Below, piece after piece: positions 820 to 37,933 of a DNA stretch of 63,046 nt. The notes under the pieces are model-generated. The model worked only from the letters and a program-made list of their open reading frames with translations. It searched no databases and had not been told where the DNA came from. Each line of letters starts with the position of its first letter. Position 1 is the stretch's first letter. The translations under genes and the position numbers were made by a program. The stretch spans positions 1-63,046 of IMG/VR virus record IMGVR_UViG_3300028891_000010; one strand, written 5' to 3'. This DNA is from a virus. Its lineage: Duplodnaviria; Caudoviricetes.

Positions 820-1134
820 ATGGATTTAGAAAACATGACTTTGTGTGAGTACCGTAATTGTTTGGATCACTTAAAAAAGCTAACTGTTAAAGCATGTAAA
901 AGATACAAAATCTTCCAACTATGTAGTAATCCCGTAGATAGAGAGGATATAGTTCACGATGTATGCATTAATGCATTTTTAAAAGCTGTTAAAACGTACA
1001 ATGCAAAGAAAAGCTCGTTTGATACTTATTTTTATTATAAAGCGTCCAGCTTAGCAAGAGTAGCAGCTATAAAGCTAAAACCAAGATACAAAATAATTAA
1101 CACCTTTCCTTTAAAAATAGAGAAAATATGTTAA
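820..1134 (+). CDS. sigma70 region-2-like protein (no region 4)
   Basis: DREDIVHDVCINAFLKAVKTYNAKKSSFDTYFY resembles sigma region 2; SD GGAGGT. Confidence 0.6.
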   Translation: MDLENMTLCEYRNCLDHLKKLTVKACKRYKIFQLCSNPVDREDIVHDVCINAFLKAVKTYNAKKSSFDTYFYYKASSLARVAAIKLKPRYKIINTFPLKIEKIC

Positions 1135-3284
1135 AAAATATAGGGTTTTTAATAAAAGAAGTTAAAAAGCATTTAGAAGAGTATCTTAACGAACACGGAA
1201 TAGACACTTCTAAAAAACTCTTCAAGTGCCCAAATCATAGGCTAGGACATAAGCACAGTGATGCTAAGCCCTCTTGTAACTTCTATCCTGATAAGACTAC
1301 GTTTAGGTGCTTTGCATGCAGCTATAAGTCTGGAGATATATTTGATGCTGTTCACCTACTAGAAGGAAAAGATATTACGGGAGAAAACTTTATTGAGGTA
1401 TTAAAGTACTTATGCAATAAATACAATATATCCTACGAAGAAACTACTACAGAAGAAGAGAAGTTTTATAACGAATGCAAAGAGTTCTTAAACAAATTAG
1501 TTGACATAGCTCATCAAAACTTACTAAAAGAACTAAAGAACAATAAAAAATTAGAAAACTTTTTAAAATCTAAACACTGGTACGAATCAGTAGAATATTT
1601 TAAGTTAGGTTATCTTAGTAAAACACCAGCTTTACAGGTGAATAGAGAAATATTATCTTATTTAAATATTAAAAACATAACAAGCTTAGCTAATCGCATT
1701 ATAATTCCTATTTATAGCTACAATGGGAATATAGCTGGTCTGACTCTAAGAAACCTAAGTGAGAATGGCCCTAAGTACACCCACTACCTAATGTATAATA
1801 TACGTAATCTGTTATTTAATATCCACAATATTAGCAGTAATGAAGTCTATGTAGTTGAAGGGCCCTCATCAGTTATAACACTACACTCCTTTGGAGTAAA
1901 TAATGCAGTAGCCACGTTTGGAAATCATTTTCACAAAAAGCAATACGAACTACTTGTAAAGAAAAGAATTAGTAAATTGACACTTATATACGATGGAGAC
2001 AACGGAGGATTGGAGGGAATAAGAAACTCACTGGGAGTTATTTCTAGATACGATATAGATGCATATATAGCTTTTTTACCCGACAAGCTAGATCCAGGGG
2101 ATTATATTATTCAGAGCAAAAGTCTATCAGGCGTTAATACCAAACCACTAATAAATTACCTCATAGAGCAGTATAAAATTAATATAAGCGACAAATACAT
2201 TGAAAAGTGCCTAATGACTTATATCAGTTCTATTACAGACTTAGTTAAAAAAGAAGAAACTATTAATTTAGTATCTAAACAAACTAAAATAAATAAAAGT
2301 ACTTTAACAGATTTGCTAGATTTATATAGCAAAAAGCTAGATTCTATTAGCATTAGTGAACTATTGAAAGAGAGAGAATCTTTATTAGTTACTTTAAACG
2401 AATATGAAAAATGGTCCTGGAGCAGAGGTCAACTGTTAGGCTTAAAGAGTTACAAGTCGTTCGATAATAAGCTGGATGGTATACAAAATGGCTTGATATT
2501 AGTCGGAGGAGTGCCAAATATAGGTAAGAGTGCGTTATTATTGTCACTATTGGTCAAGTTAGTCACTCTAAACGAGAATGTATATGCTATATACTTTACT
2601 ATCGATGATCCTTTATACGTCACTATTTCTAGATTAATAGCTAATATTTCTAACTTGCCTATTAACATAGTGTCCAATCCTAACTTTAAGATTATTAAAG
2701 CAAATTTACCTGAAGAAGTCAAGAAGGATTACATAGCGAGAAGAGAAAAAGCATTAGAGTTTTTAAGAGATAAAACAACTATATTAAACATTAAAGACAG
2801 TTCTGAAGGAAGTACTATTGAAGCTGTAGTGGAAAAAGTTAAGAATATACATCCTTTAGTAGAGCATAAACAACTAGTAGTATTTATAGATAACTTACAC
2901 AATCTTAGAAGCGAAAAATATATTAGTGACAGGCATCTATATTCGTTAATATCAAGTGAGTTAAATAATTTATCTAACGCGTATAAATGTCCTATTATAG
3001 CATCTACTCATGTCACTAAAGAGTCTATGAGAAAGGGCGACGTAGATAACACTGCTATTAAAGAAACGGTAGAGCTAATATACGATGCCAAGCTCATAAC
3101 TTTTTTACACTCGGAAGAAGATTTGGAAGAATCAGAAGTCAGAGATGATGTAGATGTAAGTATCATTATATCTAAGAACAAATTTTCATCTTTTAAAGGT
3201 AGAATTCCTTTTAGATTCTGCCGTTCTGTCTCTAAGATAGAGGAGGTTGATGTAAAGAATGAGTCAAATGAATTATTCACATGA
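1128..3284 (+). CDS. DNA primase-helicase (CHC2 Zn finger, TOPRIM, DnaB-like SF4 helicase)
   Basis: CPNH...CFAC zinc finger; VVEG and YDGDNGG TOPRIM motifs; DPGD; Walker A GVPNIGKS; VFIDNLH. Confidence 0.9.
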   Translation: MLKNIGFLIKEVKKHLEEYLNEHGIDTSKKLFKCPNHRLGHKHSDAKPSCNFYPDKTTFRCFACSYKSGDIFDAVHLLEGKDITGENFIEVLKYLCNKYNISYEETTTEEEKFYNECKEFLNKLVDIAHQNLLKELKNNKKLENFLKSKHWYESVEYFKLGYLSKTPALQVNREILSYLNIKNITSLANRIIIPIYSYNGNIAGLTLRNLSENGPKYTHYLMYNIRNLLFNIHNISSNEVYVVEGPSSVITLHSFGVNNAVATFGNHFHKKQYELLVKKRISKLTLIYDGDNGGLEGIRNSLGVISRYDIDAYIAFLPDKLDPGDYIIQSKSLSGVNTKPLINYLIEQYKINISDKYIEKCLMTYISSITDLVKKEETINLVSKQTKINKSTLTDLLDLYSKKLDSISISELLKERESLLVTLNEYEKWSWSRGQLLGLKSYKSFDNKLDGIQNGLILVGGVPNIGKSALLLSLLVKLVTLNENVYAIYFTIDDPLYVTISRLIANISNLPINIVSNPNFKIIKANLPEEVKKDYIARREKALEFLRDKTTILNIKDSSEGSTIEAVVEKVKNIHPLVEHKQLVVFIDNLHNLRSEKYISDRHLYSLISSELNNLSNAYKCPIIASTHVTKESMRKGDVDNTAIKETVELIYDAKLITFLHSEEDLEESEVRDDVDVSIIISKNKFSSFKGRIPFRFCRSVSKIEEVDVKNESNELFT

Positions 3285-3678
3285 TATATATTATATAAGG
3301 AGCAACAAAGATCTAACTGATCCGTTTGTAGCTGCTGATTTCGATAATACAATAGAGATGATTATGCCAGTAATCAGATGCGAAATAGTAGAAAAAGTAA
3401 ACTACAGTCTACCTGAAATTAGAGTAATCTTACCTCTTAGTGATTCTTTCCACATTCTAAGGCCTATTAAGTACAACTATATTTATGATTGTAAACGACA
3501 CTGGCTATTTTTATTCAAAGCACATGAAATCGTTAGACTACTCGATGTTAGTCGAAGTGTGTCTACTGCAGCAGGTACGGGAGATTATAAAAACATAGAC
3601 AAAGTAAATGCTATGTTACTCAACAATTACATATCTAAACATCTCTTTAAAGGATTTTGCGATGGTAGTAAAGATTAA
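3259..3678 (+). CDS. hypothetical protein
   Basis: 139-aa ORF packed between primase-helicase and dUTPase. Confidence 0.55.
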   Translation: MSQMNYSHDIYYIRSNKDLTDPFVAADFDNTIEMIMPVIRCEIVEKVNYSLPEIRVILPLSDSFHILRPIKYNYIYDCKRHWLFLFKAHEIVRLLDVSRSVSTAAGTGDYKNIDKVNAMLLNNYISKHLFKGFCDGSKD

Positions 3679-4081
3679 ATTATTACATTCATTAGCTAAA
3701 ATACCTACTAGGAAATATTCAGGAGATGCTGGCTATGATTTATATTCTGTAGAATGTAAAACTATTCCTCCAAGATCTATTGCAGAAGTTCAAACAGGGA
3801 TAGCTATAGAACTTCCTAAAGGATATTATGCAGAAATACATTCGCGTAGTGGATTAAGACTAAAAGGTATATTTCCACCTGTTGGGATAATAGACGAAGG
3901 CTATAGAAATGATTTACGAGTTATACTATATAATTTTACTGACAAGCCTTATCAAGTTAATATAGGTGATAGAGTAGCACAACTTATCGTAAAACCCAGA
4001 GTAGAAGTTAATTTTAAACAAGTAAGCGTATTAAATAAATCAGAAAGAGGTAGTCATGGATTTGGTTCCACAGGTAAATAA
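3662..4081 (+). CDS. dut: trimeric dUTPase
   Basis: Motifs AGYDL, RSGL, GIIDEGYR, GDRVAQL, RGSHGFGSTG; start placed at ATG 3662. Confidence 0.95.
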   Translation: MVVKIKLLHSLAKIPTRKYSGDAGYDLYSVECKTIPPRSIAEVQTGIAIELPKGYYAEIHSRSGLRLKGIFPPVGIIDEGYRNDLRVILYNFTDKPYQVNIGDRVAQLIVKPRVEVNFKQVSVLNKSERGSHGFGSTGK

Positions 4082-6359
4082 TTGCCAGGAGTGTGCATTG
4101 AGAAAAAATAGCAAACCTATACCTGGAGAAGGACCCATACCCACCGACATAATGATCATCGGTCTAGCTCCAGGATACGAGGAGATAAAGCAAAATAAAT
4201 TGTTTGTAGGTCCATCAGGTCAAAAATTAAACAGCACGCTACAAGAGATAGGTTTAAATAGAGATCAAATTTATATTACAAACATAGTAAAATGTGCTAA
4301 TACTCCAGGCAGAAAACTATCAAAAACATTTATTAAAAAATGCAGCAGTTTATGGTTAACTAAAGAAATTGAATTAGTTCAACCTAAAGTAATTTTAGCT
4401 TTAGGACAAGACGCAAGTAGTTTTTTTGGTAAAAAATTTGTAGTCAATAGTTACTTTTACAATAACAATTACAACTGCTGGATAGTAGTTACACATCATC
4501 CTGCAAGACTGCTAAGAACATATAACGACAAACTACATCAAGAACTTAAAATGGCGTTTATTATAGCAAAAAATTTACTGCATCAGTCTAATTCTAGTGT
4601 AATAAAATCTAACGCACAATACATTGAGAGTATTAGTATTGACGCTCTTAATAGATTAGGAACACTAGTGGCTATAGACTTAGAAACCACAGGACTAAAC
4701 TTTCTTACCGATTCTATAAGAGCAGTAGGAGTTAGTAATGGCAATACATCAATAGGATTTCCTTTTAACGAACAAAATAAAAAAGTATTTCAAGAGTGGT
4801 ATAGGGATAAATCTTTTATACTTCATAATGCTAAATTTGATTATAAATTCTTAAAGAAAGAAGACATTAAAATAGCAGTACATTTTGATACTAAATTAGC
4901 TCATTCAGTTATTGACAGAGACTCTCCTAATGGCTTATCTGAATTAGCCTTAAAATATTTACACACCAAACTAACTAAAGGAACTATTGATTTTGACGAT
5001 GCAGGTTATTCTAATATAGATGCAAAACAGTTATCTATTTATGCTGCTAATGACGCTTTTATGACTTATAAAATATATGAAATTCTTAAACCTATGATAG
5101 ATGTAGAATACAAGTTTGTGTATTACAACATCACTATTCCAACTATGTTATGGCTAGCAGATGCTGAATTTAGAGGAATAAAGGTAGATAGAGAAGAAAT
5201 TAAAAAAGAATTAGCTTATATGAAATTTAAACTAAAATCAATTGAGTCTGATATAAATAATCACCCTGTTGTTAAAAGCTATCTTGCTAAGAAAGGATTA
5301 AATAATCTTAATCTACGCTCACCTAAACAGTTATCAGAATTGTTATACAAGCGCTTGCAGTTACAATGCAATGATAAAAATACTTCTGAAGCTACTTTAG
5401 AATATTTATCTGAAAAATATCCTCAGTATACGTTTATAAAACAAATAGTAGAATACAGGCATTATTTTAAAGGATTTAGAACTTACTTAGAAAATCTATT
5501 AAAATTTAGTGAAGTGGATGGTAGAGTCCACCCTGACTACTCTCAGACTCGAACTTCAACGAGTCGTCTAGCTTGCCGTTCTCCAAATTTACAAAACATA
5601 CCTAAGTCAGCAGAGATATCAAAAATCATAAGAAAATGTTTTGTTGCTACTGAAGGCTATGTATTAATGCAAGCAGACTTTTCTCAAGCAGAGTTCAGAT
5701 GTCTCGGTCACTATTCAAAATGCTCCAATTTAATTAGACTAATAAATGAAAAGAAAGACATACATAGAATGCTAGCATCACTAGCATATGGTAAAGCTGA
5801 GTCGGAGATAAGTGACAATGAGAGAACCATTGCAAAGACCATAACTTTTGGAATAATGTATGGTCGAGGTGCTAAGTCTATAGCAGAGCAGTTTGGCATA
5901 TCTATTGAAGAAGCTCAGAAAATAAGAAATCTGTTTTTTGAAACTTTTCCAGAAGCTACTAGATGGATGCAGAAAGCTAAGGAATTTGCTAAGAAATACG
6001 GATTTGTTAAGACGTTAACAGGAAGAAAATTACCTTTGCCTAAAATATTTTCTAAAAACGAAGAAGAGGCTGCGTATGCAGGTAGATGCTCCGTAAACTA
6101 TCCTATACAGTCTACTGTGGCAGATATGACTAACCTTGCTGGAGCACTAATACATCATGAGTTTAAAAAACAAGGATTAGATGCTTATTTATTATTAAAT
6201 ATTCATGATGCTTTGGTTATAGAATGTCATAAGTCTGCAGTAGATAAAGTAAAAGAGCTGGTTATGGACATAATGAAAAATAAAGTTAAAGAGATTTTAA
6301 AACTAAGAGTAGATTTAGATGTTGATGTTAAAATAGGTAAAACACTTAATTTAGAATGA
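4056..6359 (+). CDS. polA: family A DNA polymerase with N-terminal uracil-DNA-glycosylase-like domain and 3'-5' exonuclease
   Basis: UDG-like CQEC..GEG..GLAPG..FVGPSG..TNIVKC..HHPA; exonuclease DLETTG, HNAKFD, YAAND; polymerase DFSQAEFR, KTITFGIMYG, IHDAL. Confidence 0.95.
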   Translation: MDLVPQVNNCQECALRKNSKPIPGEGPIPTDIMIIGLAPGYEEIKQNKLFVGPSGQKLNSTLQEIGLNRDQIYITNIVKCANTPGRKLSKTFIKKCSSLWLTKEIELVQPKVILALGQDASSFFGKKFVVNSYFYNNNYNCWIVVTHHPARLLRTYNDKLHQELKMAFIIAKNLLHQSNSSVIKSNAQYIESISIDALNRLGTLVAIDLETTGLNFLTDSIRAVGVSNGNTSIGFPFNEQNKKVFQEWYRDKSFILHNAKFDYKFLKKEDIKIAVHFDTKLAHSVIDRDSPNGLSELALKYLHTKLTKGTIDFDDAGYSNIDAKQLSIYAANDAFMTYKIYEILKPMIDVEYKFVYYNITIPTMLWLADAEFRGIKVDREEIKKELAYMKFKLKSIESDINNHPVVKSYLAKKGLNNLNLRSPKQLSELLYKRLQLQCNDKNTSEATLEYLSEKYPQYTFIKQIVEYRHYFKGFRTYLENLLKFSEVDGRVHPDYSQTRTSTSRLACRSPNLQNIPKSAEISKIIRKCFVATEGYVLMQADFSQAEFRCLGHYSKCSNLIRLINEKKDIHRMLASLAYGKAESEISDNERTIAKTITFGIMYGRGAKSIAEQFGISIEEAQKIRNLFFETFPEATRWMQKAKEFAKKYGFVKTLTGRKLPLPKIFSKNEEEAAYAGRCSVNYPIQSTVADMTNLAGALIHHEFKKQGLDAYLLLNIHDALVIECHKSAVDKVKELVMDIMKNKVKEILKLRVDLDVDVKIGKTLNLE

Positions 6360-7205: not shown

Positions 7206-7432
7206 CCCATACTAAAAAACAGATAATCAAAAAATTATACTTTTTATTGGAAAAATACAACTTACCTTTTATGAATTTATTAGTTACTGCTGTTTGCTTG
7301 CATAGAGGAATTTTTCCTAATACAGTTATTAATGAATTATCTGCTCTTAGTGATGCAGATGTCCTTAAAGCTCTTGAAACTTTTGAAAATAATCTTAAAG
7401 GTTTAAAACATAATACAGAGGAGGATGTATGA
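7202..7432 (+). CDS. hypothetical protein
   Basis: 76 aa with ATGA overlaps on both sides. Confidence 0.55.
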   Translation: MTHTKKQIIKKLYFLLEKYNLPFMNLLVTAVCLHRGIFPNTVINELSALSDADVLKALETFENNLKGLKHNTEEDV

Positions 7433-8424
7433 ATAAAAATATTGAAAAAATTATACACGCTATTAATAAGAAGTATGGAGATGGTACCATTACAGTGGGA
7501 GGCTTTGATAATATGCTTATAGAACGAGCTAGCAGTGGTATAGTAGCTTTAGACTTAGTGTTAGGGCTAGGAATCCCTCGTAGCAGTATAATAATGTTCT
7601 ACGGTAGAGAATCTTCTGCCAAGTCTAGTATTGCACTAAAGATGATATCTGAGTATCAAAAGAGAGGTGAGCTGTGTGCTTATATAGATATAGAACACTC
7701 CTTAAGCGCTGACTGGGCAGAGACACTAGGAGTTAATTTAAACGATTTAGTAATAGCTCAGCCAGACTCGTTAGAAAAATCCATTGATATTATTGATTCA
7801 CTTACTAGAAGTAAAGAATTTGGACTAATAGTATATGACTCATTAGCTATGGCAGTTCCTGAGGAAGAGCTAGAAAAATCAGCTTTTGACCAGCAGATGG
7901 CACTAAACGCTCGCTTAAACAGTAAGATGTGTAGAAAGTTAATTTCTGCACTGCAACCTGTTAATTTATCTGATAAGACTACCTATAATAAGACTACTGT
8001 ACTGCTGATAAATCAAGTACGCGAAGATGTTGGAAAGCCTTATGCTAGGGGCTATACTTATAGTGGAGGACATGCTTTAAGGCATACTGCACGCATAGTA
8101 GTAGACTTTACGAGGGGAGAGTACATAAAGAATAAAAATCAAGAGCCTATAGGAATAGAGATTAAATTCAGAACTACCAAAAACAAAACCTGGTACCCCT
8201 ATAGATCAGGCATAATAAAGTTTTATTTCGATGGACATATTGATAATAATGAAACCATTCTAATGGAGGCTAAAAAAATAGGTATTATAAAGCAATGCGG
8301 ATCTATATATGAGTACAACCATATCAAGGAAAGAGGTCTTGAGAATTTCCTAAAAGCCGTTTTAAAACAAAATCTTCTAAAGGAAATTTTAGAAAAGGTA
8401 TATAACTATTATAAGAAAGGATAG
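7429..8424 (+). CDS. recA: RecA/UvsX-like recombinase
   Basis: SSGIVALDLVLG, GRESSAKS, AYIDIEH, IVYDSLA, LINQVR, GGHALRH, KNK. Confidence 0.95.
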   Translation: MNKNIEKIIHAINKKYGDGTITVGGFDNMLIERASSGIVALDLVLGLGIPRSSIIMFYGRESSAKSSIALKMISEYQKRGELCAYIDIEHSLSADWAETLGVNLNDLVIAQPDSLEKSIDIIDSLTRSKEFGLIVYDSLAMAVPEEELEKSAFDQQMALNARLNSKMCRKLISALQPVNLSDKTTYNKTTVLLINQVREDVGKPYARGYTYSGGHALRHTARIVVDFTRGEYIKNKNQEPIGIEIKFRTTKNKTWYPYRSGIIKFYFDGHIDNNETILMEAKKIGIIKQCGSIYEYNHIKERGLENFLKAVLKQNLLKEILEKVYNYYKKG

Positions 8425-8857: not shown

Positions 8858-9098
8858 TAATTACCAAAGCGAGTTATATGTTTCTACCAATTTAAAAAAA
8901 GTGAAGTACGATGGTAGGATCTACGAAGTAAAGTCGGTAAAAATAATTGAACCAGATTCACTAGATTTTAGACATAAGTGTGTGGATGGGTGTAATTACT
9001 CTGTTAATTTTGATCAGTATATTACTTATCAAGATCAAAGCTATTATGTATTTTTTTGTAATAAATGTAAAACTTTATTTTTAAAACCCATGCTATGA
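8847..9098 (+). CDS. small zinc-ribbon protein
   Basis: HKCVDGC ... FCNKCK. Confidence 0.5.
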   Translation: MNFSNYQSELYVSTNLKKVKYDGRIYEVKSVKIIEPDSLDFRHKCVDGCNYSVNFDQYITYQDQSYYVFFCNKCKTLFLKPML

Positions 9099-9526
9099 TA
9101 GTCAATTACACTTATAATAATTTCGAAAAGGATGTTAAAAATTTACTACGTCGTATTAAATACAGTAAAATTAAGTTCAACACCATAGTAGCCGTTGCTA
9201 GGGGAGGTTTATTGCTTGGAGTTAAACTTTCTCACAAACTAAAAGTTCCTCTACTTATTGTGTCCGCAAGAAGCTATAATGGGTACAAACAGGAGAATCT
9301 TGTATTTAACGCATCTTTTACTCGCCCTTTAGAAAGTCCTGCTTTAATAGTAGATGATATCACAGACACTGGAAACACCCTACAAGCGATAGCCAATTAT
9401 ATAACTTCTATGGGTATTGAATGCAAAACAGCTACTTTATGCTATAAGGAGAAATCCATAATAAAACCTACTTGGTACTGTCGAAAAGTAAACAACAAAG
9501 ACTGGATTAAGTTTTTTTGGGAATGA
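9095..9526 (+). CDS. type I purine phosphoribosyltransferase (Gpt-like)
   Basis: VAVARGG, PRPP-binding LIVDDITDTGNT, C-terminal WIKFFWE. Confidence 0.9.
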   Translation: MIVNYTYNNFEKDVKNLLRRIKYSKIKFNTIVAVARGGLLLGVKLSHKLKVPLLIVSARSYNGYKQENLVFNASFTRPLESPALIVDDITDTGNTLQAIANYITSMGIECKTATLCYKEKSIIKPTWYCRKVNNKDWIKFFWE

Positions 9527-9759
9527 TTAAGGTACTAGATATTTTATCGGCTGTATTAACTCTTGTTTGTTTAAATCTAGTATATAAGTCTTACAAAATT
9601 TGGCTTTTGTATGTTATCTCTAGTATAATGTTTACTGTGGTGGTATGCTACAAACACTTACCTGGGTTAACGTTAATGGGGCTGTTCTTAATAGGAACTG
9701 GAATAAGTAACTATATAAAGGGGAGAAAACATGAACTTACCAGACGTACAAAACGTTAA
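9523..9759 (+). CDS. small 3-TM membrane protein (half-PnuC/SemiSWEET-like)
   Basis: Three hydrophobic segments; ATG 9523 overlaps the PRTase stop. Confidence 0.5.
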   Translation: MIKVLDILSAVLTLVCLNLVYKSYKIWLLYVISSIMFTVVVCYKHLPGLTLMGLFLIGTGISNYIKGRKHELTRRTKR

Positions 9760-10561
9760 AGTCAACTCAATTAAGATTAATAGAGTGGGCGTATCTAATG
9801 TTGACTTTCCCATTTATATTAAGTCTAAAAGTGGCGAAAAGGTACTATGTTACGCTAAAGTAAACATCTATATGTCTTTAAAGCGCAATTTGAGAGGGAT
9901 AAACATGAGCAGAGCAACTCAGGCTTTGATGAAATATAGGTATACCAGTTTTGACAGATGGGTACTGTGGAAGTTCTTGTATGATCTAAAAAAACGAAAC
10001 GACTCAGATGACGTTTATGCTGAAATCGCTTTTAAATATTTCACAGATAAAGAAGCACCAGTTACTAAAGAAAAATCAGTACTAGCACATGACTGTACTT
10101 TTATAGGGCATATTAACAAAAACAACCATTATACTTTTAGGCTAAGAGTAAGTGTTATAGGCACTAGTGTTTGTCCATGTTCACGTTCTATCTCAAGGGC
10201 AGGTGCTCATAATCAGCGCAGTATAGCAACTGTAACAGTAGAGACTAAAAAGAAGCGTACTCTATGGTTTGAAGATTTGATTAAACTTATAGAAAATCAA
10301 TTTTCTTGTAAAGTTTACTCTGTTTTAAAGAGACCAGATGAAAAATATGTCACAGAAAAAGGATACGAAAATGCCAAATTTGTAGAAGATATTGCTCGTG
10401 ATATAGCTTTAGCACTACAAAAAACTAATTTGTTGAGATGGTATAAAATAAAAGTAGAAAACGAAGAATCAATTCACACTCATAACGCTGCTGCTTATAT
10501 ATGTAGAAGACTCAAAGGAGGCAAAAAGTGGGTAGAAGCAAAACTAAAAGAGCTCAGATAG
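9731..10561 (+). CDS. folE2: GTP cyclohydrolase IB
   Basis: LPDVQ, INRVGV, GINMSR, CPCS, AHNQRS, LKRPDEKYVT, FVEDIAR, EESIHTHNA. Confidence 0.95.
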   Translation: MNLPDVQNVKVNSIKINRVGVSNVDFPIYIKSKSGEKVLCYAKVNIYMSLKRNLRGINMSRATQALMKYRYTSFDRWVLWKFLYDLKKRNDSDDVYAEIAFKYFTDKEAPVTKEKSVLAHDCTFIGHINKNNHYTFRLRVSVIGTSVCPCSRSISRAGAHNQRSIATVTVETKKKRTLWFEDLIKLIENQFSCKVYSVLKRPDEKYVTEKGYENAKFVEDIARDIALALQKTNLLRWYKIKVENEESIHTHNAAAYICRRLKGGKKWVEAKLKELR

Positions 10562-18573: not shown

Positions 18574-19472
18574 AAATTCTGGAGATTCATAATAGGGTAA
18601 ATACTATTGAAGAAGTAAAAGAAGTAGAAAAATACTTTGACGCCTTTTATGTAATGGGAATTTATGAACCTACACCTTTTAGTAAACAACACAACGAAAA
18701 TTTTGGATTAGATGGTAGTTTATTTGCTATTTGTGATTATGAATTTCAAGTTATAGATATTAAACTTTTAGAATATTTAAGAGAAACGAATAAATCTATA
18801 ATAGTAGATTTTATTCCTAATCACATAGGTAGAGATTTTAAAAACACAGGTTACGGTTTTAAAGATTTGCGTTGGGGAAATTATGAATGGATTGATACAA
18901 TACAATTAAATTATTCTTCAAGAAACGTTTATGATTTTATGCTATGGAATATTAGATACTTATTGAAAGAATGCCAATTTCATGGTTTGAGATTCGATAT
19001 GGCACACCTATTATTACAAAAGAACTATAACAGAAAACATCATGTATGTTTAGGTTATGAACCTTTAGAAGAATTAATAGAAATGGCAAAACAAATAAAT
19101 TCTAACTGTATTCTAATAGCCGAAGCCTATCAAGATTATGATGATTTAAAAAATTTAGGATTTGATTACGTTTATAGAGTAGAACCAAGAAGAGGGCATC
19201 ATTTTATAGCTACCGATACTGATTTAATTGTGATGGACAACCATGATGAAAAATTACTTTATTGGGAGTGTTATGGTAATTTAGATTGTTTAATATACAA
19301 ATTAAAAAATTTGACTTCCTATTACGGTAATACTCTTTGGTATCTTCCTGCTATAATGGGCTATACTAAAAGACCGTCAGCAAATTACTGGTATAATAAA
19401 CAATGGGATATAAATCCAAAAGTAAAGGAAATCTATTTAGAAGTTTTAGAAAATGAAAATTCTACGAAATAG
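18570..19472 (+). CDS. GH13 alpha-amylase-family catalytic domain
   Basis: Conserved regions I-IV: DFIPNH, GLRFDMAH, IAEAY, MDNHDE. Confidence 0.85.
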   Translation: MKILEIHNRVNTIEEVKEVEKYFDAFYVMGIYEPTPFSKQHNENFGLDGSLFAICDYEFQVIDIKLLEYLRETNKSIIVDFIPNHIGRDFKNTGYGFKDLRWGNYEWIDTIQLNYSSRNVYDFMLWNIRYLLKECQFHGLRFDMAHLLLQKNYNRKHHVCLGYEPLEELIEMAKQINSNCILIAEAYQDYDDLKNLGFDYVYRVEPRRGHHFIATDTDLIVMDNHDEKLLYWECYGNLDCLIYKLKNLTSYYGNTLWYLPAIMGYTKRPSANYWYNKQWDINPKVKEIYLEVLENENSTK

Positions 19473-19644
19473 AGCTAAATGTTTAATTTGCGGAGAAATA
19501 TTAGAAAGCAAACATAGGCATGATTTTAAGACTTGTAAATGTGGCAATTTAAGTGTAGATGGTGGAAAAGATTACATAAAACGAAGCGTAAAATATATTG
19601 ACAAATACAGAGATTTAAGTAAAGTAGAGAAGGAGAAAAAATGA
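19453..19644 (+). CDS. small zinc-binding phage protein
   Basis: NRAKCLICGE..S..RHDFKTCKCG..SVDGG pattern. Confidence 0.7.
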   Translation: MKILRNRAKCLICGEILESKHRHDFKTCKCGNLSVDGGKDYIKRSVKYIDKYRDLSKVEKEKK

Positions 19645-19886
19645 GGCAAGAAAAGCGATTAAAAGTATTAAAAGTATCTTTTATTGTATATCTTTATCCT
19701 GATGGAAAAGTAGATTATATAGCTCGGAAATGTGAATCACCCAACGCTTGTGAGGATTGTAAATTTAATAAAATCTGTGAAAATATAGAAACACTTATAA
19801 AGATTGCAGATTTAATAAACAAAACAAGAATTAAAAAAGCTAAAAGAACTAAATTGAAGAAAAGAAAGAAAGGAATTAGAAAGTAA
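19641..19886 (+). CDS. hypothetical basic protein
   Basis: SD AAGGAG; Cys cluster; Lys-rich tail. Confidence 0.55.
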   Translation: MRQEKRLKVLKVSFIVYLYPDGKVDYIARKCESPNACEDCKFNKICENIETLIKIADLINKTRIKKAKRTKLKKRKKGIRK

Positions 19887-20191
19887 TGGCTAAGAAAAGA
19901 AAAAGTAGATTAGAAAGACTGTGGAAAATAGAAGCAGACCCTTGGGTATGTTGTGACGTATGTAATACTGTAGTTAGTTATGGTATTGACTGTCCTTTAT
20001 GTGGAAAGCCTATAACAAGATTTTTTGGGTGTGAAAAAATAAAAGATAAAAATATTTTTTGTAAGTTTTGTAAAATTCAGTTTGAAATAATAGATTTTCA
20101 AAAGTTCTTAACACAAGTAAATAATGAGATAGAAAAACAAAGTAGGAAGCCCATTGTTTTGCAGATAAAATTATTAGAGCACGATGCCTAA
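19886..20191 (+). CDS. Cys-rich zinc-finger protein
   Basis: CDVC, CPLC, CKFC. Confidence 0.6.
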   Translation: MAKKRKSRLERLWKIEADPWVCCDVCNTVVSYGIDCPLCGKPITRFFGCEKIKDKNIFCKFCKIQFEIIDFQKFLTQVNNEIEKQSRKPIVLQIKLLEHDA

Positions 20192-20435
20192 ACGAAAAAA
20201 AAGTAGATTAGGTGGACATCATAATAATTTAGGAAGTAAAACTTGGAGAAAAAGAATTTATGCTAATGATGGAGAATTTGTAAAAGCTGGAAGTATTATT
20301 ATGAAAATAAATAAAAGTATTAAGTTAGGGGATAATGTTTATAGAAGTAAAAATATAATTCATTCCAAAATAGACGGAATTGTAAGAATAAAAGGAGATA
20401 GAGTATATGTTGATACGGAAAGGAAAAGAAGTTGA
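20184..20435 (+). CDS. rpmA: ribosomal protein bL27 homologue (divergent)
   Basis: DGEFVKAGSII..IKLGDNV..IIHSKIDGIVRI..VYV aligns with bL27 GGESVLAGSII..FHAGANV..TLFAKADGKVKF; length 83 aa matches. Confidence 0.75.
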   Translation: MPKRKKSRLGGHHNNLGSKTWRKRIYANDGEFVKAGSIIMKINKSIKLGDNVYRSKNIIHSKIDGIVRIKGDRVYVDTERKRS

Positions 20436-21078
20436 AGAGTGTTGTAGAGTAGAAGATAGTTTCTTTCATATTAATGATAGACATGGTTGGGATACACTTG
20501 TATATTGTGTATGGTGTAAATCTGTATATGTTTGGTTTAGAGGCTGTTTTATGGATTTTTATTCTAACAAGAATTACCCACCTTCTAAATGGTTTAACAA
20601 AAAAATAGGTGTTTTATCTCCCACAGCAGAAAAACTTGTTTATATTGTATCTTCTGATTTAAATAAGTCTAATATTAAAAAATTCTGTCGTATTCAAGAG
20701 AAAGATATTTTAGGTTTTAATATTCGTAAATGCATTGCAGGAGCTGGGGTGGGTTGTCCTACTCCCGATGACTTTGGTGAAGCTTATTTACCTTTTATCG
20801 AGATTGAAGGTGTAGGAGCATTAAGCATCGCATTTGAAATGCGACCTTGGGTTCATGTATCAACACGCTATCATAGTTTTGAAGAAATTATGAAATATAA
20901 AGATGCTTTTAAAGAAGATACAATTTCTGAGACTTTAGAATTAGGAGGACTTTATGATTTAGAACAAGCGAGAACTATAATTAAATTTGTTATTGCTTAC
21001 TTAAAAGGAGAAATTAAATTTCTTCCTGAATGGAAGACTACAGGATGGTATAAAGTAAGAAAAAGGAGGAAAAAGTAG
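20407..21078 (+). CDS. hypothetical protein
   Basis: 223-aa ORF in the accessory block. Confidence 0.55.
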   Translation: MLIRKGKEVEECCRVEDSFFHINDRHGWDTLVYCVWCKSVYVWFRGCFMDFYSNKNYPPSKWFNKKIGVLSPTAEKLVYIVSSDLNKSNIKKFCRIQEKDILGFNIRKCIAGAGVGCPTPDDFGEAYLPFIEIEGVGALSIAFEMRPWVHVSTRYHSFEEIMKYKDAFKEDTISETLELGGLYDLEQARTIIKFVIAYLKGEIKFLPEWKTTGWYKVRKRRKK

Positions 21079-21513
21079 ATGTTAAAAAGAATTGATTTAT
21101 TTAAAGCTAAAAGCATTATTGAAGGACTTGATTATTTAAATAAAATTTTTTCTTCTAAATTTATGTGGCATAAATTAGAAAAAAGAAAAATCACAGATAA
21201 AATTTTTAACATTACTTTAATTAGAGAAGAACCCGAAACGGGAGTAAATGGACATGGTTGTGAACATTTGTTAATTTTTTCTCAAACCCTTACAGACATT
21301 TTTTATAGCATAGAAAAAACTGAAATATTTAAAACTTATATAGCAATTAAAATTCTCTTTTTTCCTAATAGCCCTATTTTTGATAAAAATGATTTTGTAT
21401 TTGAAGAGGATGCTAATTTTATTTCGAAAAAAGTGAGATTTCTTTTATTAGATTTGCCTTGTGGAGAATACACTAAGAAAGAATTAGAAAAAATAGTAAG
21501 AAAAAGGAGGAAA
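21054..21513 (+). repeat. 19-bp direct repeat AGTAAGAAAAAGGAGGAAA at 21054-21072 and 21495-21513
   Basis: Identical copies at the 3' ends of consecutive genes, each containing the next SD. Confidence 0.8.
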
Positions 21514-21516
21514 TAA
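21079..21516 (+). CDS. hypothetical protein
   Basis: SD AGGAGG; 145 aa. Confidence 0.6.
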   Translation: MLKRIDLFKAKSIIEGLDYLNKIFSSKFMWHKLEKRKITDKIFNITLIREEPETGVNGHGCEHLLIFSQTLTDIFYSIEKTEIFKTYIAIKILFFPNSPIFDKNDFVFEEDANFISKKVRFLLLDLPCGEYTKKELEKIVRKRRK

Positions 21517-22270: not shown

Positions 22271-22854
22271 AGAAAAACAAGAAGACAATATCGGGTAGAG
22301 GTACAAGACCAAAAACATGCAAACCTAAATGGATTTTAGAGAAGAACCAATCGAAAGCAAAACTTCATTATAATTTTAGACATAATCACTTAGTGCCTTT
22401 AGTAGGATTTAGAGTGGATTTATATGAAAACGAAGATGAGTATGGTTGGGGACGAATGGATGAAAGTGTAAGTTTTGTAGTAGAAAAAATAGAAAATAAT
22501 AAATTATATGTAAAAGTTTATCATATGAAACATATAGGAGAGTATAAACATATAGGAAAACACTTAGAAGATAGTCATAAGCTATATGAAGTAGATTTAA
22601 GTAAGGATTTTGATGAAAGTAATGTAAAAGAAGTAAAAGAAATAGATACTAAAGAGAAACTGTGGAAAGAATCATCTCTAGGTAATTTGTTAGAATTGTT
22701 GACAGGAGAAACTTTTCGAGTAGTTGAGAGTAGTCTAGAAGAAAGACTTTGGAGAGCAGTTAGTAAATCTTACGAATTTAAATTTATAGATTGTGGAAAC
22801 GGATGGTGTAAGCTTATTGAAGGTAGTTTTAAGAAAAGGAGAAAAAAGAAGTGA
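22267..22854 (+). CDS. hypothetical protein
   Basis: 195-aa ORF. Confidence 0.55.
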   Translation: MKKNKKTISGRGTRPKTCKPKWILEKNQSKAKLHYNFRHNHLVPLVGFRVDLYENEDEYGWGRMDESVSFVVEKIENNKLYVKVYHMKHIGEYKHIGKHLEDSHKLYEVDLSKDFDESNVKEVKEIDTKEKLWKESSLGNLLELLTGETFRVVESSLEERLWRAVSKSYEFKFIDCGNGWCKLIEGSFKKRRKKK

Positions 22855-22940
22855 GACTTGTAACTATAGCATTATTTCAATTTACTTGTATGTTATTGGG
22901 TTTCATAATAGGTCTTTTAATTTTTCGGAGGTACAAATGA
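22851..22940 (+). CDS. 29-aa single-TM peptide (not in the ORF track)
   Basis: GTG start overlapping the upstream stop; MRLVTIALFQFTCMLLGFIIGLLIFRRYK; stop overlaps the next ATG. Confidence 0.5.
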   Translation: MRLVTIALFQFTCMLLGFIIGLLIFRRYK

Positions 22941-23479
22941 ATGATGTCATTTTATTTGCTGAAAAAATTATAGAGTTCAAATCAGTGTATTTAGCAGGAG
23001 GTATTCAAAATCGCAATAATCCCGAAAGCTGGAGAGAGCCTTTAACTAAATTCTTTAAGTCCAATAATATAGAGGTGTACGATCCTGTAAAAGATAATGA
23101 GAATATTTTTAACCCAAGCGTGCTAGGTCTAGATGTTAAAACTCTAAGTGATTTAATGGGAGTGGACGAACTAAAACATGCTGTGCTACTGAAACAGACC
23201 GAACTAAATGATATGTACGTTGTCAAAAACAAAGCAGATCTAGTGGTATTTTATCTAGATGGGACTGAAAGCTTTGGAACTTGGACAGAGTTTTCTTGGG
23301 TTTATAGTTTAAAGAAGCCTTTTATAATAGTAAGAACTGAGCCTCGTAAAAAATTACCTGACTGGGTAAAGTGGAGACGATACTATGCTTTAATTATAGA
23401 TAGAATAGCGTTGGAATTTAGAAGTTTTGAAGAGTTAAAAAGATTTTTTATAGAATATTTAGGATTCAAAGATGTATAA
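22937..23479 (+). CDS. nucleoside 2-deoxyribosyltransferase-like protein
   Basis: SVYLAGGI, WR, YDP, ADLVVFYLDG..SFGTWTE; SD GGAGGT places the start at 22937. Confidence 0.75.
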   Translation: MNDVILFAEKIIEFKSVYLAGGIQNRNNPESWREPLTKFFKSNNIEVYDPVKDNENIFNPSVLGLDVKTLSDLMGVDELKHAVLLKQTELNDMYVVKNKADLVVFYLDGTESFGTWTEFSWVYSLKKPFIIVRTEPRKKLPDWVKWRRYYALIIDRIALEFRSFEELKRFFIEYLGFKDV

Positions 23480-23577
23480 CGGTTATTATTGCAGCCCCAC
23501 TCCTAAAGAACACTTAAATCAGGTTCAGTAAGATTTTATGGTGAGGGTGAAAAGATTAAATAAGAGGGAGGATACGA

Positions 23578-23952
23578 ATGAGATTAAGAGAAATAACTTT
23601 AACTTTTCATGAGTGTATTGAAGCAGGACACTGGGTACCAAATGACCCAGGGGTCTGCAGTCAAAGACATGGACATTCTTGGACTATAAATGTGTCTATA
23701 ATAGGCCTATATCACCCAACGCAGGGAATGCTAGTTAACTTTAGAGATGTTAAAAAAATTATACGAAGATTTGATCATACAACTCTAAACGATTACTTTA
23801 AGTTACCTACTGCTGAAAACCTAGCTAGATATTTTGCTATGAAAGTATTAAGACTAAATTCTGATAGTATCATTTCAGTTAAAGTTGACGTTGCTGAGAA
23901 GCAAGATAACAACATAGCTACTGCTATTATAGATAACTGGAGGTTTAGATGA
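23578..23952 (+). CDS. queD: 6-carboxy-5,6,7,8-tetrahydropterin synthase
   Basis: AGH, CSQRHGHSW, GMLVNF, FDHTTLND, PTAENLA. Confidence 0.9.
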   Translation: MRLREITLTFHECIEAGHWVPNDPGVCSQRHGHSWTINVSIIGLYHPTQGMLVNFRDVKKIIRRFDHTTLNDYFKLPTAENLARYFAMKVLRLNSDSIISVKVDVAEKQDNNIATAIIDNWRFR

Positions 23953-24296
23953 TGAAAGAAGGTGGTACTAAATACGATAATCAAAAACCTAAACTAGCTT
24001 TACTTCCTCCTGCAGCTATAGTTGAAGTAGGTAAAGTTTTCACTTTTGGAGCTAGTAAGTATGGTGAAAACAATTGGAGAGGTGGATTTAAATGGACTAG
24101 ATTACTAAGCGCATGTCTAAGACATATATTTGCTTTTTTAAAGGGAGAAGACTTAGACGAAGAAAGTGGATTAAATCATTTGGCCCATGCAACTGCTTGT
24201 CTACTAATGCTACTGGAATTATACTATACAAGAAAAGATCTAGATGATAGATATAAACATGAAAAGAAGAAAGAAAAAAAGAAAAAGAATAGTTAA
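23949..24296 (+). CDS. dATP/dGTP diphosphohydrolase (DUF5664-like)
   Basis: GGTKYDNQKP, VFTFGASKYGENNW, LRH, DLDEESGLNHLAHA. Confidence 0.85.
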   Translation: MMKEGGTKYDNQKPKLALLPPAAIVEVGKVFTFGASKYGENNWRGGFKWTRLLSACLRHIFAFLKGEDLDEESGLNHLAHATACLLMLLELYYTRKDLDDRYKHEKKKEKKKKNS

Positions 24297-27449: not shown

Positions 27450-28703
27450 ATGCCTTTCTGGTTTTTTAATTTCAAAAAAGGTAAAACAGAAGAGAAAGAG
27501 TCTCAGATATCCGAAACTGCTAGCGCTTATGGAGCTCACGACTACGTAGAACCTTCCTACGAGCAAATATCTCCTAATACTATTCAACAATTATATGATC
27601 GGTCTAATCTGCTAAAAAAATATGTAAAACTTATTATAGACGAGTGTTTGCGTTATGAATTTAAAGCACACCCTAAAAAAGAATATGAAAGTGATAGAGA
27701 AGCTAAAGAACAAGCTAAAGAAATAAACGATTTATTATCTTTTTGCAATATCTACGAAACTTTTAATGAAATACGAGAAAAATATTTAAAAGACTTACTA
27801 TTATATGGTTATGCAGGGGTAGAATTAGAGCCTACTGAAGGACATATAGTAAAAGCTATTTACGCTGTGCCAGGCTATGCTATTCGTTTAAATGTTGATG
27901 ATACAGGTGCAAACTTTAAAGATGATAAAAAAGCTTATATCCTATTAAATCCTAATGAACTTGAAGAAATTGTGGCTTATTACCCTGCAAATTCTTTTAT
28001 ATATTTTGTATTAGATAAAATGAGTGATAGGGTTTACGGATCTCCTCCTATCACTAGTATATACCAGGAAATTATGACTGATATTAACTCATCTAAAAAT
28101 CTTAAAGCTGGTTCTAATTCTTTAAAAGCAGGAGTGTTATGCTTGCCTAAAGCACCCAGAACTCTTTTAAAAGATATTATTAATAGATTATTATTGATGT
28201 GTAAGAAAGACGCTAGAGTTAAAATAGTAGCATCTAGTACTGATGGTAAGTTTTTAGACCTAACTAATCTAAATCCAAAAGATACAATAGAATTGCAAAA
28301 ATGGTTGCTACAAAAAGCTAACATCTTTAATATTCCTCCTCTTAAGTTAGGCTTAACTGCTGACATAGGCTCTACTAGTGCAAGAGAGCAGAGAGATGAT
28401 TTTAAAGCCTTAATAGAAGATTTTGTTAAGTATGAACTGTCTAAATGGAATGCTATACTATTAAAAGCTAAGTTAAAATATAATAAAATAGAAATAACCT
28501 GCCCTAACCTAGCCACCAAATTAGAATATGAAAGAGCAAGAATAGCAGTTAGACTAGTAAATGGAGGTATAATCACTCCTAACGAAGCTAGGGTTAGGTA
28601 TTTAGGCCTGCCCAAACTGAAAGATCCTGCCGCAGATCAGTTAATGAGAGGAAAACAAGCTGTTTCTAGCCACGCTTCTGAAAAGAGAGAAGTGAAGGAA
28701 TAA
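27450..28703 (+). CDS. portal protein (HK97-like)
   Basis: DLLLYGYA, YGSPPI, FNIPPLKLG, GIITPNEARVRYLGLP. Confidence 0.9.
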   Translation: MPFWFFNFKKGKTEEKESQISETASAYGAHDYVEPSYEQISPNTIQQLYDRSNLLKKYVKLIIDECLRYEFKAHPKKEYESDREAKEQAKEINDLLSFCNIYETFNEIREKYLKDLLLYGYAGVELEPTEGHIVKAIYAVPGYAIRLNVDDTGANFKDDKKAYILLNPNELEEIVAYYPANSFIYFVLDKMSDRVYGSPPITSIYQEIMTDINSSKNLKAGSNSLKAGVLCLPKAPRTLLKDIINRLLLMCKKDARVKIVASSTDGKFLDLTNLNPKDTIELQKWLLQKANIFNIPPLKLGLTADIGSTSAREQRDDFKALIEDFVKYELSKWNAILLKAKLKYNKIEITCPNLATKLEYERARIAVRLVNGGIITPNEARVRYLGLPKLKDPAADQLMRGKQAVSSHASEKREVKE

Positions 28704-35674: not shown

Positions 35675-37933
35675 CTACCTTGCACTTTTAGATTCTGATG
35701 CTTCTAATTGTTTTTTTGTTTTCAGTACTGTATTTGTAATCCACTGAAGTCTTCTTTCTATACTTTGTAATAGTTCTACTGTATCATAGCTGTACCCTTC
35801 AAACCTTTCAGCTATACTGGCAGCAGCATCTCTAACTTGTTTCTGCGCCTCAGGTACCTTAGCAAACTCTATTTCAAAATAAGGTCCGAAAGGTACTAAT
35901 TGAGGGGCTAGTCCATATCGTCTTGATAATTGTACAGCCTGTTCATACCTTTGACGGTATTTTTCAGGTATATTCTCAAACTGACCTCGTAAAGCATATG
36001 CAGCGTAGCGCCGAAGAGTTTTATGATACTCCCAATGTGGAAGTTTTCGTTCTAACTCTGGTATAGGAGTCATTAATAATCCACGTATATAAGATCGAGG
36101 GCCTGGCAAGATAGCTCTAGATATAGCACCTAGTATTCCTGGTTGCCTTCTTGCTACTTCTGATCCCGTTGCAAATATTATTTCCCAAAAAGCAGTTCCT
36201 ATTTCACGAGCAGCTTTAGCTAAATGCTCTTTAATAAGATTTATAACAGGCTGCATTCTTTGAGCCAGTCTTTCTCGTATAGGAATCAGTCTTTTTTCTC
36301 TCTGTTCTTTGGATTCACCTTTAGCTATTGAGTCTAAATATTCAGTAATCAGTTTTCCCACATCTTCAAGCACGGGTCCAAAGGCATTTTCTACTCGTAC
36401 TCGTAATTCCTCTAAGGATTCATTTAGTTCTTCATTGCTAGTAATCCATTTAGATGTAGGATCTATTACTTTTTCACGTATTAGTTTATTTATAGGTCCT
36501 AAAACTGAAACTCCAAATGTGTTAGCTATTGAATCTCCTAACTTTCCTATAGCATTAGTTAAAGCTTCTGTCTGTGCCTCCCAAGTTTGCATGAGTTTTT
36601 CTACCATCTCTTTAGACTTACCCATGGATTCCTTAACTTGGCTCAAAATATCTTGAAAAGTCTCGAATTGAGCAGTAAGAGTGCCTAGTCCTCCAGCTCC
36701 CCTGATATTAGCAATATCTCTGTAAAGCAACATTAGCTCTTCTCTAGATGCTTTACCTGATTTCACTAAATCTAAAAAAGCTTTAACTATTTCAGAAGGA
36801 TATTTTATTCTACCACCAGCTCTTACAAAGTATCTGAATGTTTCTTCTGCAAATTCCTTTTCTGATTCGATCATATCTTTCAACTGAGCTTTTCTCTCTT
36901 GTATTTCAGCAAGTCTTTCTTTATCTCTTCTTTTTCTAGCAACGCTTTCTAAATCATATAACTTACTTAATTCTTTCTTATAATCCATTATACGTCTCGA
37001 AGCAGCTTTAAGTTCTTCTGCATATCGTCTTGATTTACCTGTTGCTTCATAAACTTCTACTCCATACTCAGTTAATAAACCTATAGTTGCTGAAGCAGGA
37101 GCCATAATTTCCAACAAAGCGCGTTTTAACCATCTTGCACCTTTATTACCCTTTACAGCTACAGATGTCATAGTCATTATAGATCCTATATACTCTCTTG
37201 CTACCTTCATACCTTTACCATATGCCATAGCCATAGCATAACCCACGTTACTTACTCCCTGCACTAAATCCTTTAAAGTACCAGTAGTTGAAGCAACACC
37301 TACTATGACTGCATCTGTAAATTCTTCCCACTGATCTTGAGAAATTCCAAAAGTACGAGCTAGACGTAGTATGTCTAAAGCCATGCTAGATACGTCTTCT
37401 CCTGTAATGGCATGAGCTCTAGATAATAACTCTAAGAACCGTTTGTATTCTTTAGTTTTTAAACCACTTTTAGCTAAATCTACTGAAAGTTTTCCTATTT
37501 GTCTGGCATTTAGCATTATAGCGTTTCCTGTGTAATAAGCTTGTTTTTTTAATTCCTGATAAGTTTTAGTAAAGTCTTCACCTCCCCTAGTCATTATAAC
37601 AGCTGATCTGGCTAAGTTTAGTCCCACCTTTTGTGCTTCTTCTATAGTTTTCTTAATCTCTTGTAGTCCACTACGAAACAAGTTAACTATACCATAAGCT
37701 ATAGTTCTAAATACAGCAGATTTTAAAGTTTGACCAAAGTGTCTTAAAGTCTTTTCTAACTTAGTTAATTTTCCGTAGAACCACCCCACAGCAAAAGCCA
37801 TTCCTCTAAAAGCTGCACTATGTTTTTTAAGATCTTTAATAGCAGTTTCTATCTCTTTAAGTCTTTTTTTAGCTTCTTCTGCTCTAACTCTAACTAATAA
37901 TTCTATTTCTGCTCCTAGAACTTTTTTGTGCAT
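35675..37933 (-). CDS. tape measure protein
   Basis: 752 aa helical, TP901-type core (LAKSG..AITGED..GNKGA); follows the chaperones. Confidence 0.85.
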   Translation of the reverse strand: MHKKVLGAEIELLVRVRAEEAKKRLKEIETAIKDLKKHSAAFRGMAFAVGWFYGKLTKLEKTLRHFGQTLKSAVFRTIAYGIVNLFRSGLQEIKKTIEEAQKVGLNLARSAVIMTRGGEDFTKTYQELKKQAYYTGNAIMLNARQIGKLSVDLAKSGLKTKEYKRFLELLSRAHAITGEDVSSMALDILRLARTFGISQDQWEEFTDAVIVGVASTTGTLKDLVQGVSNVGYAMAMAYGKGMKVAREYIGSIMTMTSVAVKGNKGARWLKRALLEIMAPASATIGLLTEYGVEVYEATGKSRRYAEELKAASRRIMDYKKELSKLYDLESVARKRRDKERLAEIQERKAQLKDMIESEKEFAEETFRYFVRAGGRIKYPSEIVKAFLDLVKSGKASREELMLLYRDIANIRGAGGLGTLTAQFETFQDILSQVKESMGKSKEMVEKLMQTWEAQTEALTNAIGKLGDSIANTFGVSVLGPINKLIREKVIDPTSKWITSNEELNESLEELRVRVENAFGPVLEDVGKLITEYLDSIAKGESKEQREKRLIPIRERLAQRMQPVINLIKEHLAKAAREIGTAFWEIIFATGSEVARRQPGILGAISRAILPGPRSYIRGLLMTPIPELERKLPHWEYHKTLRRYAAYALRGQFENIPEKYRQRYEQAVQLSRRYGLAPQLVPFGPYFEIEFAKVPEAQKQVRDAAASIAERFEGYSYDTVELLQSIERRLQWITNTVLKTKKQLEASESKSAR

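Follow-up and report, generated by a model that had tools for sequence, protein, structure and literature searches.

A phage-encoded, strongly diverged homologue of ribosomal protein bL27 and its relatives in Candidatus Omnitrophota

Introduction

The bL27 protein of the ribosome is described as conserved universally in bacteria, its N-terminus being located next to the ribosome's catalytic centre (PMC13450312). It is described to be involved in the assembly of the 50S subunit and in placing the acceptor ends of tRNAs at the peptidyl-transferase centre (PMC13157829). A phage-encoded bL27 is not new: the jumbo cyanophage PhiMa05 carries six ribosomal proteins including bL27, which is already annotated in GenBank (PMC13157829). 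Here, we analyzed a further phage-encoded bL27 homologue of 83 amino acids, which is located at 20184..20435 (plus strand, ATG start, stop codon included) of the IMG/VR virus record IMGVR_UViG_3300028891_000010. This linear record of 63,046 bases was analyzed as a whole and is referred to as the window. What is new is the link of the phage gene to a lineage of aberrant cellular bL27 proteins.

The authors of the PhiMa05 study argue that genes flow between phages and bacteria and that viral copies are the sole ones in some bacterial genomes (PMC13157829). Like the present bL27, that of PhiMa05 is phage-encoded. In contrast to PhiMa05 with its jumbo genome and its six ribosomal proteins, the present phage comprises about 63 kb or more and encodes bL27 alone, in a highly diverged form. 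Virus-encoded bS21, bL12, bL9, bL31 and bL33 were reported by Mizuno et al. (2019; PMC6375957), who stress that such proteins are loosely bound and exchangeable. The present gene resembles theirs in being a homologue in a bona fide viral genome, in its purifying selection and in the proposed replacement of the cellular version (PMC6375957). The terms "L27" and "bL27" are absent from the main text of that paper, which has a supplementary list of 14 proteins. Phage bL27 is rarer than bS21 or bL12. Our literature search delivered no paper combining Omnitrophota and L27, and none combining virus-encoded ribosomal and L27. Judged by title and the start of the abstract, only the PhiMa05 paper seemed relevant for phage-encoded L27, though supplements might list further viral L27.

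Identity of the phage protein

The gene at 20184..20435 encodes a true but strongly diverged bL27 homologue, with regard to its whole length as well as its fold. A sequence-only reading of this stretch had proposed a phage-encoded bL27 starting MPKRKKSRLGGHHNN, and the ORF (open reading frame) turned out to be real and to start as described. The assignment is supported by the Pfam family PF01016 (Ribosomal_L27), by L27 matches in the PDB, by the predicted fold and by hallmark phage genes on both sides of the ORF. PF01016 is matched with 25.5 bits (gathering score 20.5; E = 1.3e-5), residues 7-75 of the protein aligning to positions 4-76 of the 79 profile positions, and a six-frame search of the record gave 24.8 bits. 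The protein thus exceeds the Pfam gathering score in the profile check that had been suggested along with the proposal, but stays below the cut-off of the equivalog model TIGR00062. With a profile of the phage protein and seven close relatives, 25 distinct PDB sequences were matched at E <= 1, all of them named L27, the best being 7jil_W, a Flavobacterium johnsoniae chain (E = 0.0014). Among the PHROGs, only phrog_27091 was found (E = 0.087). Given this degree of divergence, a standard annotation would scarcely identify the phage protein as bL27.

Structure prediction, likewise suggested beforehand, points in the same direction. An AlphaFold2 model, calculated from an input alignment of 15 rows of which one was canonical, reached a mean predicted local distance difference test score (pLDDT) of 79.9, with 83-94 in the blocks of the core and 61 and 54 in those of the first 20 residues. 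All 50 Foldseek matches listed for this model are chains of ribosome entries (template modelling scores 0.49-0.65), and seven of them are PDB chains named L27.

The phage protein belongs to a small, fast-evolved L27 lineage, which we call A4 after the alignment of that name. For comparison, a canonical set (A5) was compiled from ten bL27, nine from Omnitrophota and one from a Firmicute-type operon. Aligned with hhalign, A4 and canonical bL27 match with a probability of 98.0% (E = 1.6e-13) over 75 columns, spanning residue 6 (canonical residue 4) to residue 80 of the phage protein. Both share the fold, a length of about 80 amino acids and a high isoelectric point, and in both a long basic tail rich in Gly, Ser and Asn is followed by a small beta core. 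This beta-strand core of the L27 fold corresponds to codons 25-76 (20256..20411, plus strand) and keeps the motifs AGSII, GxNV and DGxV, while the canonical RQRGT and DDTLF are missing. The phage protein differs from canonical bL27 (rpmA; PF01016, TIGR00062) further in two one-residue loop deletions, in a tail that is two residues longer and in the lack of the rplU-rpmA-obg operon: the gene is found outside an rplU-rpmA(-obg) neighbourhood and is surrounded by small phage ORFs.

Firmicute bL27 carries an N-terminal extension of 8-12 residues (bioRxiv 10.64898/2026.08.10.744006). One Prp-cleaved representative, encoded in the order rplU, Prp, rpmA, obg (L008), is 38% identical to the phage protein over 64 residues. 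In contrast to it, the phage protein lacks a pro-sequence of this type, the alignment starting only after the extension of L008. No Peptidase_Prp match was obtained in a Pfam scan of the five neighbouring and 30 further ORFs of the window.

The N-terminal tail

The N-terminal tail (codons 1-24; 20184..20255, plus strand) was claimed by the sequence-only reading to be a replacement of the bL27 tail. This claim is not supported. The hhalign alignment to canonical bL27 includes the tail from residue 6 on, and even if the phage clade is aligned alone to canonical bL27, the alignment starts at residue 8. The tail comprises 34 residues before the AG motif of the core, compared to 32 in nine out of ten canonical rows, and is basic as in canonical bL27, with a net charge of +8 compared to +4 to +6. 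Its proximal motif GSKxWRxR is common to the whole A4 family, cellular members included, and two distant members start with MSHKKAGG and MSHKASS, linking the lineage to canonical starts. Since the tail aligns to the canonical one, keeps its length and its basic nature and shares the proximal motif with cellular members, it is diverged and not swapped. As the sole bL27 detected in one Omnitrophota family is of the same odd version, the unusual tail belongs to a lineage and is not a phage-made replacement.

The distal 16 residues of the tail are specific to the phage clade. Among the eight sequences of this clade, 15 of the 24 tail positions are invariant, compared to 25 of the 52 core positions. 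The low AlphaFold confidence of the tail (block means 61 and 54) is as expected of an extended tail. Relatives of the phage protein start with MAKKRK. Without the initiator methionine, such proteins would begin with a small residue and continue with a basic cluster, which is also the case in canonical bL27.

Relatives of the phage gene

Members of the A4 lineage are characterized by GSKxWRxR in the proximal tail, by NxY and IHAK in the core and by two one-residue loop deletions. They are rare. A word-indexed search of 5.8 billion proteins revealed 8 matches among 9 candidates (identity 67-100%), and when 1.84 billion cluster representatives were searched exhaustively with a profile, only 10 proteins were obtained at E <= 0.001. 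Employing tblastn with the phage protein and with the protein P0011 against 50,697 phage records gave no match (for the phage protein, none at E <= 0.01). Scans of IMG/VR with A1, P0009, P0010, P0014, P0011 and P0013 led to pattern matches, none of which was confirmed as a relative, and the same is true for the 86 pattern matches obtained with A1 in species-representative genomes.

From 45 proteins and 82 columns, a maximum-likelihood tree was calculated, in which many forks are unresolved and the 23 rows of A4 form one clade on a long branch (support 99/98). Within it, the phage clade of six rows (100/99) lies beside three metagenomic proteins (81/91), while a third clade (91/74) comprises nine Omnitrophota genes together with P0011 and P0016.

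The phage gene is under purifying selection. The ratio of nonsynonymous to synonymous substitution rates (dN/dS) is 0.31, 0.33 and 0.43 in three full-length pairs and does not exceed 0.43 in any of 10 pairs. It is below 1 in both parts of the gene, with 0.37-0.40 in the tail and 0.21-0.43 in the core.

Genes in Candidatus Omnitrophota

Relatives of P0011 were detected in two metagenome-assembled genomes (MAGs) of Candidatus Omnitrophota, where ordinary bacterial genes surround them. Read from sequence, these neighbours include putative ORFs for a 607-amino-acid MnmG-like and a 445-amino-acid glutamate-dehydrogenase-like protein, a response regulator, a LemA-like and a formate-dehydrogenase-like protein. 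Within the GTDB order of the two MAGs, 9 of 101 sampled genomes gave a strong A4 match (75.9-102.7 bits), and the number remained at 9 for the full set of 234 genomes (E <= 1e-8). One family of this order accounts for a strong match in 8 out of 10 genomes. Across the phylum, strong matches were found in 1 of 151 genomes of a first and in 2 of 401 genomes of a second sample.

The Omnitrophota genes of A4 type (L010, L011, L027-L033) resemble the phage gene in the motifs GSKxW[RH]QR, NxY and IHAK, in the short loops and in standing alone, outside the rplU-obg operon. They differ from it by an identity of only about 35%, by a tail of 30 compared to 34 residues with a different distal part, by a score below the Pfam threshold (18.6 bits) and by their location on a chromosome, in which they are the sole L27-like gene found. 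Of the 101 genomes sampled from the order, 75 are matched by PF01016, but the nine A4 genomes are not among them. Employing a profile of the other L27 type of the order to these nine genomes detected the A4 gene alone in seven and nothing in two, compared to 128.5 bits in a control genome. In two of the genomes (G001 and G002; loci L013 and L012), rplU is directly followed by the start of obg and the usual rpmA between them is missing. L21 and Obg are encoded beside L27 at 11 of 11 canonical Omnitrophota loci, but at none of the nine A4-type and none of the 11 short-tail loci. The cellular A4 genes occupy varying loci and have no neighbours in common with the short-tail L27 loci of the order. 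In 36 out of 36 pairs, the proportion of nonsynonymous differences (pN, 0.12-0.39) is lower than that of synonymous ones (pS, 0.46-0.99). On the simplest reading, the A4 proteins are presumably the working bL27 of that Omnitrophota family. The phage gene led to a bacterial family whose sole detectable L27 is of the same aberrant lineage. In addition, it led to an order of 234 genomes in which the L27 of the sampled members lies outside the rplU-obg operon and is mostly of the short-tail type.

This short-tail bL27 is an observation of its own. It is present in most members of the order (loci L034-L046); its core motif is preceded by about 23 residues compared to 32, the part from AHKK to NGRDS is lacking and PF01016 gives only 20-42 bits. 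The idea that lineages with a shortened tail have no tmRNA was rejected, as 92 of the order's 101 genomes contain a match to RF00023 above the cut-off.

Function

We give an even chance to the reading that the phage copy replaces or supplements the bL27 of its host during infection. This reading is based on a full-length homologue under selection, a highly conserved basic tail and cellular relatives that are sole copies. The phage would make its bL27 copy along with replication and nucleotide-metabolism genes, and this copy would take the place of bL27 at the base of the central protuberance in host 50S subunits. The tail would thread toward the peptidyl-transferase centre, and both ribosome assembly and elongation would be kept going, or tuned, during host takeover. 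We infer that the protein is incorporated into ribosomes, that the phage gains from this and that the ribosome of its host is of A4 type and possibly Omnitrophota-like.

Several points weigh against such a role. First, the sequence has diverged far: the NCBIfam equivalog TIGR00062 gives 21 bits at a cut-off of 90.35, only 14 of 31 canonical-invariant columns are kept (3 of 9 in the tail), as read from the hhalign alignment, the motifs NGRDS, RQRGT and DDTLF are all lost, and the canonical AHKK start is changed too. Second, the identity of the phage clade to any non-phage member is only about 35-44%, and the metagenomic proteins P0009, P0010, P0012, P0013, P0014 and P0017 may originate from viruses or from cells. 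Third, a location in the 50S subunit near the peptidyl-transferase centre is predicted from the sole-copy cellular relatives, and since MAGs are incomplete, "only L27" means that none other was found. Fourth, the window contains no other translation gene, tRNA or Rfam RNA, and thus no supporting translation module. Finally, the window has a GC content of 31%, compared to 36-46% around the Omnitrophota A4 genes.

It is rather unlikely, yet worth considering, that the protein occupies the bL27 site as a modifier or inhibitor of the ribosome, its altered, more basic and two-residue-longer tail changing the events at the peptidyl-transferase centre. For example, an altered admission of tmRNA-SmpB or of particular tRNAs might favour phage messages or damp host translation. 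Such a function fits to the tail being the best-conserved part of the protein within the phage clade (15/24 positions invariant), to its charge (+8 compared to +4 to +6) and to its phage-clade-specific distal 16 residues. It would also agree with a recent proposal according to which the N-terminus of bL27 keeps tmRNA-SmpB from interfering with elongation (PMC13450312, 2026). However, the present data do not tell modification from plain replacement, and the signatures of proximal tail and core are common to cellular sole-copy proteins, which argues for an ordinary function.

One might further speculate that the L27 fold was recruited for a non-ribosomal task and that the protein is a neofunctionalised, small basic nucleic-acid binder of phage RNA or DNA, or of another partner. 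The canonical rRNA-contact motifs are lost, the PF01016 score amounts to 25.5 bits only compared to 115.3 for a canonical Omnitrophota bL27, and the gene is flanked on either end by recombination junctions, amid a mosaic of small ORFs. Moreover, the L27-type fold is also known from non-ribosomal RNA-binding proteins, and one Omnitrophota A4 protein (L010) shows weak, sub-threshold matches to ECR1_N/RRP4. Nevertheless, we regard this explanation as quite improbable: the A4 lineage stands in for rpmA in nine bacterial genomes, the homology extends over the full length and thus beyond the fold alone, and the long conserved basic tail is a hallmark of bL27 without obvious use elsewhere.

If the phage protein enters ribosomes, viral ribosomal proteins would extend from peripheral, exchangeable ones to one that reaches the peptidyl-transferase centre. 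If this is true, the lineage would provide a natural series of tail variants for probing the role of the bL27 tail.

Origin and host

With the lineage being shared, one may ask whether phages and cells exchange core ribosomal proteins. Two directions are both possible: either the gene was captured from an A4-bearing host, or a cellular rpmA was displaced by a phage-borne copy. In its bold form, the latter would make A4 a mobile, phage-carried core ribosomal protein that was evolved and spread by phages, one copy having taken the place of the native rpmA of an Omnitrophota family. In that case, the direct adjacency of rplU and obg in this family, its varying, non-syntenic L27 loci and the fact that the A4 genes do not group inside the short-tail type would be explained. 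Even so, we consider it an unlikely scenario. The mirror reading would be equally notable if true, as no earlier phage lineage would have been linked to a ribosome of Omnitrophota type, the aberrant bL27 being captured from the host in this case. No gene similar to the phage clade was found in any of the Omnitrophota genomes sampled.

An in-situ divergence of the short-tail L27 of the order into A4 was considered and is not supported, as the loci of both types have no neighbours in common. The profile of the phage clade aligned to canonical bL27 with a probability of 97.1% over 70 columns and to the short-tail type with 92.6% over 49 columns. However, counter to this rejection, the A4 genes are recognised by a short-tail profile (21-36 bits) but not by Pfam.

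Ties of the phage to Omnitrophota are only weak hints. The window encodes a 605-amino-acid terminase-like protein with homologues in 2 of the 234 genomes of the Omnitrophota order (L051 in contig G203:C13 and L053 in contig G213:C18). These comprise 549 and 548 amino acids and are 41-45% identical over the C-terminal part, but 27-29% overall. Sequence comparison thus points to phage-derived DNA in these two Omnitrophota bins. Across three 20-kb stretches, no other gene was shared with the window better than E = 1e-7, and the homologue was counted as no real link to a host, being distant and without another shared gene. In the ESM Atlas, the three nearest clusters are L27 with Candidatus Omnitrophota as commonest taxon, at a score of 0.87, which is below the level of 0.9 for a lead. 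The DNA polymerase of the phage is at most 28% identical to that of any cultured phage, and the major head protein of the phage has one relative in IMG/VR, of 86% identity, on an 11-kb record.

Assembly and structure of the locus

Confirmation of contiguity had been recommended as well, and the locus was recovered from several sources. Contigs of the runs X1 and X2 cover 19000-20448 without any difference, while both runs may be the source of the window. The L27-like gene is also present in the independent runs X3 and X5, in one case as a contig of 151 nt from an independent study without any difference to 20186-20336 and in the other (X5) as a diverged copy with 29 differences in 223 nt. The gene was furthermore detected on four additional metagenome contigs, beside homologues of the small ORFs of the window. 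That it is an assembly chimera or a decaying fragment of a host gene is therefore hardly credible and largely refuted: although the window is a metagenome-assembled record with an estimated completeness of 68% (CheckV) and one relative (L002) contains a frame-breaking extra A in an A-run, intact copies exist on several independent contigs with phage neighbours, the contigs of X1 and X2 and the independent runs agree in containing the gene, and dN/dS is well below 1. The extra A of L002 is located in the A-run of codons 5-7 (L002:404-440) and leads to an early stop, which might reflect either a homopolymer sequencing error or a broken copy.

The gene lies amid a mosaic. Its ATG overlaps the stop codon of the upstream ORF, and its last 29 nt are shared with the next ORF. 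Downstream, two ORFs of 223 and 145 amino acids without family match are encoded at 20407..21516 (plus strand). The first of them is also found in L002, while both are precisely absent in L003 and in the contig of run X5. In the latter, 20406 is joined directly to 21517, and in L003 the L27-like gene is directly followed by a homologue of the ORF at 21517. Judged from these contigs, the two ORFs are an indel cassette. Its left junction falls inside the last codons of the L27-like gene; consequently, the C-terminal approximately 9 residues vary, and two kinds of C-terminus occur among the relatives.

Upstream, a Cys-rich ORF of 101 amino acids is located at 19886..20191 (plus strand), for which all zinc-ribbon matches in Pfam are below the cut-offs. 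It was already noticed from the sequence alone that it starts with MAKKRKSRL and resembles the start of its neighbour. The start is correct, and the same nine residues form the N-terminus of the L27-like protein in five of seven aligned relatives. At the nucleotide level, the first 28 nt (9 codons; 19886-19913) of the upstream ORF are nearly identical to the gene start in relatives and copy the L27-like gene's ancestral 5' end. No second match to this start was found in the window with up to 3 mismatches, nor any in 100 shuffles, and by reading, the start of the L27-like gene in the window itself deviates from it in 5 of 28 bases. Other genes are located upstream in L002-L004. The duplicated gene start may be the footprint of a cassette that was inserted through short homology at the gene's 5' end.

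The phage record

The GC content of the record ranges from 27 to 35% (overall 31%). The L27-like ORF is located in an arm encoded on the plus strand, amid genes for replication and nucleotide metabolism and many small ORFs. Matches to phage families were obtained for a primase-helicase (1128-3284), a family A DNA polymerase (4056-6359), a UvsX-like recombinase (7429-8424), SbcC- and SbcD-like nucleases, a portal (27450-28703), a tape measure (35675-37933, minus strand), a major head protein (44400-45386, minus strand) and a head protease. A scan for promoters and terminators found 56 promoter-like sites compared to 49.3 expected, and no terminator near the L27-like gene.

Some further features of the window deserve mention. 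Close to the L27-like gene, an ORF of 63 amino acids (19453-19644) strongly matches the Pfam family DUF7695 (86.4 bits). Between 19641 and 22854, many small ORFs end in runs of K and R (for example ...KRRKK) directly ahead of the following start codon, which is probably due to purine-rich ribosome-binding sites embedded in the preceding coding sequence. Nucleotide and base-modification genes are found at 3608-4081, 9095-10561 and 22793-24296. They comprise a dUTPase, a phosphoribosyltransferase, a GTP cyclohydrolase FolE2, a nucleoside 2-deoxyribosyltransferase-like protein, PTPS/QueD and the N-domain of a dATP/dGTP diphosphohydrolase. This set suggests modified DNA bases. Finally, a glycosyltransferase of family 9 and a fusion of a polysaccharide pyruvyl-transferase with a methyltransferase are encoded at 41366-44346 (minus strand), between the head and the head-tail genes, which is an unusual position for such genes, inside a structural module.

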